Source: Mobula hypostoma (taxonomy: Eukaryota). From it: a DNA stretch of 64,000 nt. The notes beneath the pieces were generated by a model. The model did not search any database. It was not told where the DNA came from and saw nothing but the letters and a program-made list of their open reading frames with translations. The stretch covers positions 101,248,001 to 101,312,000 of the forward strand of contig NC_086107.1 of the NCBI RefSeq assembly GCF_963921235.1, written 5' to 3'. Every line of letters begins with the position of its first letter. The first letter of the stretch is position 1. A program made the translations under genes and the position numbers. Shown here one piece after another: positions 2,931 to 60,930 of this stretch.

Positions 2931-3124
2931 ATAACTAGACACAAATTCATACCCTCCAGGGCAACATTGATCACTACCCTGCTCTGCCTTAGAAATGCAC
3001 AGCTAACACCTCAGGGCACTATACAGATAACACCAACGTTTTCTCTGCAAATTGTTCCAAATACATTGGAAGGTTAAGTGAACCAACATCAGCATCCTCT
3101 CCGAGGGCAACATCCTCAGTTGTA

Positions 3125-3243
3125 AACAGGAGAAAATCTGCAGACGCTGGAAATCCAAGCAACACATGCACAAAATGCTGGTGGAACGCAGCAGGCTAGG
3201 CAGCATCTATAGGAAGAGGTACAGTCGACGTTTCGGGCCGAGA
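3125..3243 (-). mobile_element. Penelope-like pLTR mini-insertion with 11-bp TSD, inside an old RTE fragment
   Basis: CCTCAGTTGTA at 3114-3124 and 3244-3254; the insert matches the terminal part of the Penelope element at 47055-48612. Confidence 0.8.
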
Positions 3244-3661
3244 CCTCAGTTGTAGTCGGCTACGTGGGCCAGCTCACAGCACTAGATCCCTAAAACAGAA
3301 ACACTAATCCAAGCCCCAACACGGCACAAAGTTACCGGGTGGACAAGGATGTATGCATGGACTCGGAAAAAATTACATCATTCCCTCACATCACAGAGAA
3401 TCCCTTCCCCATGCGTACTCAGAGCTGGGAAGGATTACTCAGGATGGTTTTGAGAACTGACTGCATGCATCAGCAGCACAGAGTGAGCAGCTGAAGGAGA
3501 TTAATCGCTCAGCACAGACAAGATGGGCTGAAGAGCCTATTTCTTCTCTGCAGTGTTCTATGACTCCATGACCCTCGATGTTCCTCTGATAGCATGGCAT
3601 TCTGACAGTGCCTAGACTTGGCCCCACAATCTCCTGATGTAGAGGCATCAGTTGCTTCCCC

Positions 3662-5197
3662 ACTGAACTACAGTGAGCTAGTCACTCCACCCAGGACTGA
3701 ACTACAGTGAGTTAGTCACTCTACCCAGGACTGAACTACAGTGAGCTAGTCACTCCACCCAGGAGTGAACTACAGTGAGCTAGTCACTCCACCCAGGACT
3801 GAACTACAGTGAGTTAGTCACTCTACCCAGGACTGAACTACAGTGAGCTAGTCACTCCACCCAGGAGTGAACTACAGTGAGCTAGTCACTCCACCCAGCA
3901 GTGAACTACAGTGAGCTAGTCACTCTACCCAGGACTGAACTACAGTGAGCTAGTCACTCCACCCAGGACTGAACTACAGTGAGTTAGTCACTCCACCCAG
4001 GACTGAACTACAGTGAGCTAGTCACTCCACCCAGGAGTGAACTACAGTGAGCTAGTCACACCACCCAGGACTGAACTACAGTGAGCTAGTCACTCCACCC
4101 AGCAGTGAACTACAGTGAGCTAGTCACTCTACCCAGGACTGAACTACAGTGAGCTAGTCACTCCACCCAGGACTGAACTACAGTGAGTTAGTCACTCCAC
4201 CCAGGAGTGAACTACAGTGAGCTAGTCACACCACCCAGGACTGAACTACAGTGAGCTAGTCACTCCACCCAGGACTGAACTACAGTGAGTTAGTCACTCC
4301 ACCCAGGAGTGAACTACAGTGAGCTAGTCACACCACCCAGGACTGAACTACAGTGAGCTAGTCACTCCACCCAGGAGTGAACTACAGTGAGCTAGTCACA
4401 CCACCCAGGACTGAACTACAGTGAGCTAGTCACTCCACCCAGGAGTGAACTACAGTGAGCTAGTCACTCCACCCAGGAGTGAACTACAGTGAGCTAGTCA
4501 CACCACCCAGGACTGAACTACAGTGAGCTAGTCACTCCACCCAGGAGTGAACTACAGTGAGCTAGTCACTCCACCCAGGACTGAACTACAGTGAGTTAGT
4601 CACTCTACCCAGGACTGAACTACAGTGAGCTAGTCACTCCACCCAGGACTGAACTACAGTGAGTTAGTCACTCTACCCAGGACTGAACTACAGTGAGCTA
4701 GTCACTCCACCCAGGACTGAACTACAGTGAGCTAGTCACTCCACCCAGGAGTGAACTACAGTGAGCTAGTCACTCCACCCAGGACTGAACTACAGTGAGC
4801 TAGTCACTCCACCCAGGACTGAACTACAGTGAGTTAGTCACTCCACCCAGGACTGAACTACAGTGAGCTAGTCACTCCACCCAGGACTGAACTACAGTGA
4901 GTTAGTCACTCCACCCAGGAGTGAACTACAGTGAGCTAGTCACTCCACCCAGGACTGAACTACAGTGAGCTAGTCACTCCACCCAGGACTGAACTACAGT
5001 GAGCTAGTCACTCCACCCAGGACTGAACTACAGTGAGCTAGTCACTCCACCCAGGAGTGAACTACAGTGAGCTAGTCACTCCACCCAGGACTGAACTACA
5101 GTGAGCTAGTCACTCCACCCAGGACTGAACTACAGTGAGCTAGTCACTCTACTCAGGAGTGAACTACAGTGAGTTAGTCACTCCACCCAGGAGTGAA
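3662..5197. repeat. 34-bp minisatellite, ~45 copies
   Basis: Unit ACTGAACTACAGTGAGCTAGTCACTCCACCCAGG, head to tail with a few recurrent variants and no spacers. Confidence 0.97.
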
Positions 5198-5358
5198 GGG
5201 GAGACTTTGAGTTTCTTCTCTTTGGATGCGTCTCTCCCCCTCCACCTGTCACAGAAATTTTCCCGAAAGGCCGTTGTTCACTGCACCCATTCAGCATATG
5301 AACTTGGTGCTGCTTTCCTTAAATGAGGCCCCACAAAATTATAGGTAATTAGTCATAC

Positions 5359-57374: not shown

Positions 57375-57410
<36 letters not shown>

Positions 57411-57464
57411 AGACACAGACACAGACACACACACAGACACAGACACACACAGACACACACACAC
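57375..57464. repeat. (AC)n/(ACAGAC)n microsatellite inside the R4 RT
   Basis: R4 reading frame (SWLIGM | YKLHP) continues on both sides. Confidence 0.9.
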
Positions 57465-59844
57465 ATTCCTATTAACCATGAAGTAAAATCTGGACAGAAT
57501 CAAATGCTCTTTAGTAGTCAGTATAACAACATGAAAGATCTCTGCTTTTCCTCATTATTAGGATTATTGGCTTACTGTTGCTATAGGTTCTTGTGAAAAT
57601 ATTGTCTGGCACACTGTTCATACAGGTGAGATCATTACACAGTGCATTGAGGTAGAACAAGGTAATAACAATGCAGGATAAAGTGTAAAAGCTACCGAGA
57701 AAGGGCAGTGCAGGCAAACAGTTAAGTACAGGATTATAACGGAGTAAATTGTGAGGGCAGGGGTCCATCTTGTTGTACAAGATGTCCGTTCAGGAGCCTG
57801 TGGAGGACTGCTGACACTTCTGATCTCCTTCACGCCACACACACCATCTCACCTGGATGCATAATCACTGCTCCTTCTTCGTTCAGATCCAGGAGCCTCC
57901 TCTCCAGCAGCGCTGGGGGGTGGTACCACTCACCAGAAGGACTCCACAACAGTTTCACTACCACAATTAGATCATTGGAGACGGACAATAAATGCTAAGA
58001 GTTGCCTCTGATCCTGTGGCCTGGATATAATAAATATAAAAATGCTCCAGGTGAAAATCTGTGGGGATTCTTAGGAATATAAACATCTTGAATATCTCTT
58101 GTGAAAAAAAAAATTGGAAGTTCTTGTTTACATCAGGAAGAGTCTACTGGCAGCAGAAGTGACTGTAAAGTAACTGGGTTTCTGCTCTTGTTCGGTCCAG
58201 CCCTGTATGAGCCCAGACTTAGACCAGAATAATTAATTCTTCATGACCCGTAGCTTGGTCTAGCCAGTCACTCTGCTGATCTATAAATACTTGAAATCCA
58301 TATCCTACTCCAATGCCTTGAACTCCAATACCCCGAATGGAAAATGCTGCAAACAGTAATGGATCCATCACAGGTGAAGCCCTCCCCACCACTGAGCACA
58401 TCTACACGGAGCGCTGTCACTGGAAAGCAGCATCCATCATCAAGGACTCCCCCCACCATCCAGCCCATACTCTCTTCTTGCTACTACCCTCCAGCCAGAG
58501 GTCCAGCAGGCTTAGGTCACACCACCAGGTTCAGGAACTGTTATTAACATTCAGCATTTTTTACTAGAGGTGAGTAACATTAAAATCAATAATTAAGAAC
58601 AGGCAATTAATTTTCTGATCAGAAACTAATTCAGAGGATTATTACTCAGCTAAGTGATGAACAAAATTGATCAATGTTTGCGACTGTATTTGACAGAAGA
58701 GATCAAATCCAAGCCAGCATTAAACACAGGGAATTAATTTCAGGTCAGCTTTTAAAACAAGATTAATAATTAGACTTAGCCTAAACACAAACAATTAATG
58801 CGCAAAGCCACACAAACACAGAGCAGTTAGTGGTCACATTAGCTTTGAATACGAGAAATTAATGGTCAGATCAGCATGAAACATGGGTAATCAATGTGCA
58901 GATTAACATTAAGCATGAAAGAATAAGGCTTGGATCAGCACTAAATCATAAGGACAGGAACAAGACAAGATCATTGTAACCCACATGGTTACAGGAGGAG
59001 CATGCAAACTCCACACAGACAGCTCCTGAGGTCAGGATTGCATTTGTCAGAATTATTCTACATTGTTTCTCTTGTCTCTAGATGATTTAGCAATGTTTTC
59101 TTATTTTTTTCTATTTTATTTTCATCAAATGTTTAGCCATCCTTTCACCACTTTGAATACTCTCCCAACCTCTTTTCATAGACTTTCTTTGGAGCACAAC
59201 AAGTCTCTTTGCTCACTCTCACACCGTCCAGATTTTGTCACACGTGGGTCACCCTTCCTGTGAAGTTTCTAAGTTTTAGTGGAAGGTAGAATTGGGAACC
59301 GTGAAATATTTCTCCAAATGCCTGAGACAGCTTATGTCCTGTCCATGTTTTTAATCCCATTTCCCAATCTTATCCCTCGCCCTTGGCAACTAACTGATTT
59401 ATTTTATTTTAAGGCTGTGGGGTTTTAACTCAAGTTTGTCACTCTCAGAGGGAACACAATATTCTGTCATGTTATGATCACCCTTCCCCAAATAACCTTT
59501 TTGTAAGGTCACAAATTTATTTATTACATGTGGCAACAAGCATATCTTCCAGTGACAGGCAATCCACCTGAACTAGTCTAAGTCATGACCAAGGAAGGAG
59601 AGTGGAGGGATACAGGGAAAACCGATTTGTTCGCCCAGCGAGTGAAAGGGAGAACACTGGTGTTCGTAATTAAAGGAGTGATAACAGAGCATGAAGGAGC
59701 AAAGAACCTGACTGGCTAAAGCTGACATGAGCTTCTAAAAGAAAATGGTGTTTAATAAAGTTCTCTGAGAATTTAGTTGGCAGGAGTTGACAAGGGAGAA
59801 CAAGTGATCCATAAAACAGCAGGACAGATCACCTAGAAACTAGA

Positions 59845-60930
59845 ATCAGAACCAGGTTTAATACCGTATGTCATGAAATTTATTGGAAGAGGTACAGTCG
59901 ACGTTTCGGGCTGAGACCCTTCGTCAGGTCTAACTGAAAGATCTCAGCCTGAAACGTCCACTGTACCTCTTCCAATAGATGCTGCCTGGCCTGCTGTGTT
60001 CACTAGCATTTTGTGTGTGTTGCTTGAATTTCCAGCATCTGCAGATTTCCTTGTGTTGTCATGAAATTTGTTGACTTTGAGGCAGCAGTACAATGCAATA
60101 CATAATAATAGAAAAACACTAGTGGATTATGGTAAGTATATATGTATACACATAAAATAGTTGAATTAAATAAGTAGTGCAAAAATAGAAATAAAAAGTA
60201 GTGAGGTAGTGTTCATTGGTTCAATATCCATTCAGAAATTCAATGGCAGAGGGGAAGAAGCTGTTCCTGAATCATTGAGTGTGTGCCTTTAGGCTTCTGT
60301 ACCTCCTTCCTGATGGTAACAATGAGAACTAGGCATGACCTGGGTGATGGGGGTCCTTAAAGATTGATGCTGCCTTTTTGAGGCACCGCTCCTTGAAGAT
60401 GTCCTGGAAGCCAGTGGCCATGATGGAGCTGGCTAAGTTTACAACACAACTGCAGTTTATTTTGATCCTGTGCAGTAAGCTACCTCCTCCCCACACCAAA
60501 TGGTGAGGCAGCCCATTAGAATGCTCTTCACAGTATGTCTGTAGAAATTTGCGAGTGTCTTTGGTGACATACCAAATCTACACAAACTCCTAATGAAACA
60601 CGGTCGCCGTCACACCTTCTTTGCAATTGTATTGATATGCTGGACCCAGGGTAGATCATCAGAGATATTGACACCCAGGACCTTGAAGTTGCTCACTCTT
60701 ACCACTTCTGATCCCTCTATGAGGAGTGTTGTGTGTTCCCTTGACTTGACCTTTCTGAAGTCCACAATCAGTTCTTTGGTCTTACTGATGTTGAGTGCAA
60801 GGTTGTTGCCACGACACCACTCAACTAGCTGATAGATCTCACTCCTGTATGCCTTCCTGTCACCATCTGAAATTCTACCAACAATAGAAGTACTGTCAGC
60901 AAATTTATAGGTGGCACTTGAGCTGTGACA
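59845..60930 (-). mobile_element. Rex1/Babar-like LINE 3' fragment
   Basis: Same sequence family as 39060-39710 and 9320-10420. Confidence 0.8.
59882..60056. mobile_element. Penelope-like inverted pLTR insertion with 13-bp TSD
   Basis: TGTCATGAAATTT at 59869-59881 and 60057-60069; an inverted hammerhead-bearing piece followed by a sense 3' end. Confidence 0.88.

Follow-up and report, generated by a model that had tools for sequence, protein, structure and literature searches.

Short insertions of endonuclease-bearing (EN+) Penelope-like elements (PLEs) are heavily truncated at the 5' end, have an inverted arm that is shorter by a tail of 30-40 nt, and show overlap between their two arms, target-site duplications (TSDs) and two start points of reverse transcriptase (RT), as far as the available text of PMC8557442, PMC3846280 and PMC11167929 extends. 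All of these traits, including similar TSD lengths, are shared by copies of a PLE that we identified in a stretch of 64,000 nucleotides from Mobula hypostoma (assembly GCF_963921235.1, contig NC_086107.1, positions 101,248,001 to 101,312,000 of the forward strand; hereafter the window, with coordinates counted from its first letter). The accessible portions of the EN+ PLE literature describe no preferred 5' junction, whereas 4 of 13 arms in the window end within 5 nt at one site in the pseudo-long terminal repeat (pLTR), at loop II of a predicted hammerhead ribozyme. The breakpoint is not fixed, and there is at best a mild preference, seen in a minority of arms. The account that we favour, at a little short of an even chance, is 5' truncation over a broad range, with a seam softly preferred at this site, just past the motif GAAGGG.

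Two further systems bear comparison. Alu 5' truncations peak at RNA structures, with a minority of insertions truncated at such places, and these are attributed to RT pausing, microhomology being the competing explanation (available text of PMC4666360); the Alu peaks rest on 566 insertions made with the L1 ORF2 protein, whereas the window offers 4-6 ends and an unproven peak. Non-LTR retrozymes (bioRxiv 10.64898/2026.07.22.740005, in the part accessible) are likewise short, non-coding, pLTR-derived and hammerhead-related, but consist of tandem units with whole ribozymes. The copies in the window are solo, none of 16 Tandem Repeats Finder rows overlaps them, and their sense arms are without the CUGANGA half, the 5' half of the core; thus they are not non-LTR retrozymes.

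The repeat corresponds to the 3' terminal part of a Penelope-like retrotransposon, the longest copy of which in the window spans 1.56 kb (47055-48614). The reading frame at 47719-48645, covering the RT thumb, had 140 relatives, the best a Chiloscyllium protein (67%), and the frame at 47474-47950 gave a 46% alignment to the C-terminal part of protein P0011, which matches RVT_1 (just under the cut-off) and GIY-YIG. The closest named proteins to the element frames belong to cartilaginous fishes; the window's own frames matched no Pfam family at E 0.001. The layout is that of an EN+ PLE, with a PLE-type RT, a C-terminal GIY-YIG endonuclease and a pLTR downstream. Between RT and endonuclease, a CX4CX2C linker is present in the 47474-47950 frame, in P0011 and in P0004, and a CX2-5CxxC linker at this place is a feature of the Neptune clade in the available text of PMC8557442; the linker points to a position for this element within that clade. 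The same element is represented, 250 bp away from the long copy, by a short RT-region fragment at 46701-46803 (80% to 48505-48607).

We defined position 0 as the first T of TCTC, the base adjoining GGG (the 5' strand of helix II), with the AC-rich internal end at about +82 and the tail end at about +117. Metazoan PLE minimal type I hammerheads, in the accessible part of PMC4209133, share with this pLTR the CUGANGA core, the extra base before helix II, a G-C first pair, GAAA, a palindromic ACGU replacing helix III and a helix I of 4-5 bp; they differ in helix II, of 7-8 bp against 3-4 bp here, and in the more stable competing upstream hairpin that is predicted here. Core boxes, the extra base at 9/10.1, the G10.1-C11.1 pair and the palindromic 15.2-16.2 were read directly in the copies at 47055, 59882 and 32057; the palindrome is decayed in the 12068 copy. 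Rfam returned no hammerhead match at the gathering score across the window, nor any among the weak hits in two regions. Measured against the features set out in PMC4209133, as far as available, the pLTR carries those of a minimal PLE-type hammerhead, and the ribozyme is a predicted one. The element type and hammerhead had been recognised in a first-pass annotation of the window, which also correctly kept the seam apart from the ribozyme cut site, 17 nt downstream of it; the predicted cut follows +16. Hammerhead cleavage as the origin of the seam was rejected, none of the placeable arms in the window ending at +17.

The annotation had described three independent insertions with different TSDs, and we recovered these at the same places, with TSDs of 11, 12 and 13 bp (Table 1). 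The sense arms of all three start within -2 to +1 of the first base of hammerhead loop II, consistent with the shared start at TCTC that had been proposed: each can be placed at 0, with an ambiguity reaching -2 in the 3125 copy, because its TSD ends in GG, the same letters as -2 and -1, and +1 in the sense arm at 12222. TSDs of at least 11 bp were found in 3 of 10 insertions tested, and all three of these start at 0. The inverted piece that precedes the sense arm in two of them is indeed variable in length. The three insertions are real and independent events, because the inverted arms end at about -68 and at -25 or are absent, and because the sense arms differ, being pairwise 85-87% alike (101-104 identical of 119-122 columns) with different variant blocks in each. 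The insertion at 12068-12343 breaks into a LINE-like (long interspersed element-like) repeat.

The annotation had allowed that these copies might descend from a single amplified master already bearing the junction, and GA does precede TCTC in both inverted copies. However, the inverted arms and the junction letters differ, the third copy has no inverted arm, the sense arms carry their own variants, and the 12068 inverted arm is closest to its own sense arm (80/82, against 70-71 of 82-83 to other copies), which refutes such a master for these three insertions and leaves it barely credible overall. The identity of 80/82 indicates that both 12068 arms come from one template reaching upstream of 0. 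For the 59882 insertion, the arm overlap of 35 nt is too short for an identity call (33/35 to its own arm, and the same to 3125); both arms share a letter at a position where it is seen in about 2% of the depth in the related-fish runs X1 and X5. A transcript 5' end at TCTC, which had also been suggested, is contradicted by both inverted arms, which copy template upstream of 0. The two inverted copies can stem neither from a master copy nor from a ready-made 120-nt RNA.

Further copies were located by a profile search of the window. In the resulting census, which leaves out as unplaceable the decayed stretches 26320-26396, 27803-27853 and 28801-28894 and weak matches with E > 1, 16 arms could be placed and 13 reach the site (+5). 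Four of the 13 end in -2 to +2, and six in -5 to +3; the only arm of the tighter cluster from beyond the annotation's set is that at 33507. Seven of the 13 run through the site, among them the copy at 32057, whose predicted hairpin is the strongest, and the fixed breakpoint claimed in the annotation does not survive this count. Its decayed copy at 27302-27432 does turn near the site, at about -5/+3, but lacks a tail, and we found no TSD for it. Three of the nine tail-bearing arms start at 0 and six elsewhere, which, together with different variants and templates reaching beyond 0, departs from the fixed 5' end that a short interspersed element (SINE) takes from its master; nor did the distinct 120-nt SINE-like class that had been proposed appear as a peak in our comparison, itself blunted, with contigs of four related-fish runs.

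In L1 twin priming, two primed cDNAs are joined, giving a 5' inversion within the TSD. The arms in the window overlap, so that one stretch of template is represented twice, something that twin priming in a single pass does not produce. They have the optional tail (30-40 nt) and inverted 5' arm of EN+ PLEs, and the inverted arms at 12068, 33507, 27302 and 19107, together with the copy at 47055, end about 35 nt before the tail end. This anatomy shows that the two arm types reflect two RT start sites, as reported in vitro for an anole PLE in the available text of PMC11167929. The insertions would then be ordinary short target-primed products of a Neptune-type PLE, with RT starting at the tail end (about +117) to give the tail-bearing arm and at the AC-rich site (about +82) to give the tail-less inverted arm. 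Their cDNA ends would fall over a broad range, with 0 as a soft favourite for a minority at most.

We read a soft preference at 0 because 4/13 arms cluster in -2 to +2, with a best-case P of 0.001-0.03 in a scan statistic that gives the probability of an equally tight cluster anywhere under geometric truncation. The probable cause is GAAGGG at -6 to -1, a purine run that adjoins a pyrimidine tract (80-82% pyrimidine in the sense strand upstream of -20). On an RNA route, the purine run and the pyrimidine tract would pair as a hairpin with its 3' foot at -1/0, and RT would pause there; on a cDNA route, the complementary patch would anneal the purine-rich 3' end of the opposite strand, so that the sense strand would start at 0. 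Minimum free energy folds of the template ahead of RT place the 3' foot of a hairpin at 0 (young subfamily) or at -1 (older subfamily). The unwinding cost ahead of RT peaks at -1 to +3 in both subfamilies under three settings. Within the element body, a cost as high as that at the site is reached at 1-5% of positions in the young subfamily, against at most 0.1% in the older one. For inverted matches of 3 nt, position 0 ranks first or joint first in two of three copies (7 against a mean of 1.3; 12 against a mean of 2.5) and fifth in the third, although this measure and the unwinding cost rest on the same complementarity.

The annotation had attributed an RT stop to the ribozyme fold. A pause at an RNA structure is plausible, given the peak in unwinding cost at -1 to +1, but the ribozyme fold is not supported as its cause: the blocking helix is a competing hairpin, which buries the 5' half of the hammerhead and whose predicted stability exceeds that of the ribozyme helices, and the 3' foot of helix II itself lies at +8, not at 0. 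The catalytic fold and cleavage would thus be unnecessary, and helix II would block RT at +8.

Several observations beyond the arms that run through the site weigh against even this soft preference, some from the window and some from related fishes. Barriers of equal size occur at +67, +98 and -12; folding of the 61-nt hairpin regions does not surpass that of shuffled sequences (z 0.29 and 0.11); and exact overlaps amount to 2, 0 and 0 nt across the three seams, which does not show annealing. With a per-window P of 0.007-0.013, 1.1-2.3 such triples would be expected over the 173 genome windows with notes.

The remaining points come from the contigs of four related-fish runs (75,920, 64,379, 15,592 and 13,376 contigs), which we compared to the inverted arm 12060-12209. 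Among the loose-end places listed, six per run, position 0 was outside the three strongest 5'-ward places in all four runs, which bounds loose ends at 0 to fewer than 190, 170, 131 and 92 contigs, below 6-8% of partly placed contigs. Among the joints listed, 1/22 ends fell in -2 to +2 (1.0 expected) and 2/22 in -5 to +3 (1.8 expected), although one of the two joints labelled opposite-strand ends exactly at 0. These 22 ends represent 11 joints, namely the 2 opposite-strand joints and 9 of 12 listed rows of unstated kind, with 8 labelled skips and 44 further table rows standing outside the count. Detection of pieces ending at 0 is lowered by changes at 12132 and 12136 that are private to the reference, and the X1 counts are incomplete. 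Contig depth passes 0 without a step. Collapsed contigs would yield a ramp, however, and depth was hence not used as evidence; the ramp ratio of 0.41-0.55 in three of the four runs fits several models.

Much of this would also follow from chance alone, with 5' ends spread over the last 200 nt, short arms common, and three of them coinciding in one of many windows. The scan P rises to 0.003-0.2 if ends of ambiguous placement are treated separately, or if the 27302 event enters the count a single time or is left out; only 1/8 arms outside the annotation's set ends in -5 to +3, an unremarkable result that chance gives 37-60% of the time; about one or two such triples are expected over the 173 windows; and the listed joint ends of related fishes spread from -43 to +65 without an excess at 0. 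However, the cluster sits where both sequence measures, from one complementarity, point, all three TSD-bearing insertions share the start, and the contig comparison is biased against pieces ending at 0. We consider chance a possible explanation and a serious one, though clearly short of even.

A stronger form, in which RT stops or switches template at a defined point, the boundary of stem and loop II, through the hammerhead fold or a bound protein, and so yields a class of about 120 nt making up at least a quarter of short copies, appears to us quite unlikely. It would suit the start at 0 in 3/3 TSD-bearing insertions and 3/9 tail-bearing arms, and the overlap of 0-1 nt in two seams, as expected of cDNA genuinely ending there; a PLE protein also aids hammerhead cleavage in vitro, and so probably contacts this RNA (PMC11167929, in the part available). 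Given a 25% share, however, at most 1/22 ends at the site among the joints listed has a P of 0.015 at full, 0.16 at half and 0.49 at quarter detection, which speaks against such a share only where detection was nearly complete, and there is no loose-end peak at 0 among the places listed. The 3' foot of helix II is misplaced for such a stop, and 10/10 exonised Mobula loci run through 0, though these are a selected sample. Overall, the related-fish comparison leans against a dominant breakpoint and is compatible with a modest one.

The strongest 5'-ward loose ends among the places listed were at -13 to -15 in all four runs, with low agreement (0.33-0.42) of the sequence beyond them. They would fit a natural 5' end of the template RNA between -12 and -25, where stem I begins on its 5' side, arising as a start site or intron end, with run-off of RT and a few bases trimmed, as would the window ends at -14, -12/-17 and -25 and the intron end of D. 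virilis, which maps to the 5' end of helix I in the available text of PMC4209133. Yet the loose ends at -13 to -15 are mostly accounted for by subfamily divergence, because their consensus starts like the older-subfamily upstream sequence at 32057. Arms reach -68, -110 and beyond, and trimming to one base in three events is unexpected. An upstream RNA end is thus very improbable, and the soft seam within a broad truncation remains our preferred reading.

Close to this region, at 12164-12195 (minus strand), lie a branch-point-like word, a pyrimidine run and, near -18, a CAG end, immediately ahead of hammerhead stem I; together they resemble the D. virilis intron end at helix I. The stretch could equally be an initiator-like word. 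An intron 3' end or initiator near -20 was rejected as the cause of the seam, as it does not coincide with 0.

We additionally found that the antisense pLTR end (12221-12340, minus frame) is present in-frame, as about 26-49 residues, in 11 annotated Mobula isoforms from 10 loci. The proteins with this stretch (P0122-P0132, P0134 and P0138) have recurring boundaries, and the antisense stretches in these gene models look like Alu-style exonisation; a literature search on exonised pLTR ends found nothing specific. With the antisense frame ending at 0 as query, the 11 Mobula proteins and two more representatives all cross 0. Protein frames were rejected as a test of the breakpoint, since the exons require a splice donor upstream of 0. 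A short-protein search gave no matches, a PDB search nothing relevant, and a protein-based scan no copies. Motif scans of viral, metagenome and prokaryote contigs gave 219 loci, none matching the pLTR profile at E 1e-5; these are chance matches.

Table 1. Copies of the Penelope-like element in the window and the target-site duplications around them (positions relative to 0 as defined in the text).
Feature	Coordinates	Strand	Remarks
TSD, 11 bp	3114..3124, partner 3244-3254
5'-truncated pLTR end, 0 to tail end, without inverted arm	3125..3243	-	start ambiguous, -2 to 0
TSD, 12 bp	12056..12067, partner 12344-12355
Inverted arm without tail, +81 to about -68	12068..12216	-	contains complete minimal hammerhead (predicted) 12128-12164 and competing hairpin 12149-12179
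Sense arm, 0 (or +1) to tail end	12222..12343	+	80/82 identical to own inverted arm
Old copy with two arms, the inverted one crossing 0 to about -14, the sense one from about +48	19107..19266		counter-example
Old copy, start -12 to -17	19983..20123	+	counter-example
Tail-only fragment	22123..22149	-	counter-example
Decayed two-armed copy, inverted arm end about -5, sense start about +3	27302..27432		without tail; TSD not found
Older-subfamily pLTR with tail, through to about -110	31962..32196	+	counter-example
Two-armed copy, inverted arm end +2, sense arm the tail alone (about +84)	33507..33624		TSD not found
Old interrupted relative crossing decayed hammerhead	34990..36214	-	counter-example
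Tail-less 1.56-kb 3' part of parent element, runs through 1.5 kb	47055..48692	-	counter-example
TSD, 13 bp	59869..59881, partner 60057-60069
Inverted arm, +34 to -25	59882..59941	-
Sense arm, 0 to tail end	59942..60056	+	seam without exact overlap

The copy at 47055-48692 contains the RT thumb region, the CX4CX2C linker, a GIY-YIG-like motif and the pLTR with its predicted hammerhead, and has a short 5' inversion at 48658-48692. A 207-bp inverted pair (33686-33892 and 35770-35976, 92%) flanks the 3' end of a LINE-like repeat together with some of the old Penelope-like copy, an arrangement that suggests a local inversion or a nested insertion. Two further LINE-like 3' ends, at 9900-10328 and 14792-15227, are inverted, 95% identical and about 4.5 kb apart, and the second extends into a 286-codon RT frame (14944-15804). 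Elsewhere the window holds a single-exon gene of the linker histone H1/H5 family (24035-24604, plus strand; PF00538), a tRNA gene (63453-63525, minus strand; Rfam 67.4 bits) and homogeneous minisatellites at 3662-5197 (34 bp x 45, 95% matches) and 7359-7781 (38 bp x 11, 94%).

The insertions belong to a well-described type, and structure-linked truncation peaks have already been reported for Alu. Our literature search, which covered few subscription papers, found no paper in which the 5' junctions of a PLE pLTR are mapped, and both the role of the PLE hammerhead and the joining of inverted arms are called open questions in the accessible parts of PMC8557442 and PMC11167929. The present evidence is a small cluster, also attainable by chance across many windows. 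If the junction peak were real, thousands of genomic copies would report the state of the RNA or the joining of strands in vivo. It is unlikely, in our estimate, that in at least a quarter of short insertions with a tail the start falls precisely on the boundary between stem and loop II because an anti-ribozyme hairpin, or a hammerhead-bound RT protein, halts the cDNA; were this true, the junction histogram would be an in vivo footprint of the off state of pLTR RNA, and would offer a handle on the role of the hammerhead in PLEs.

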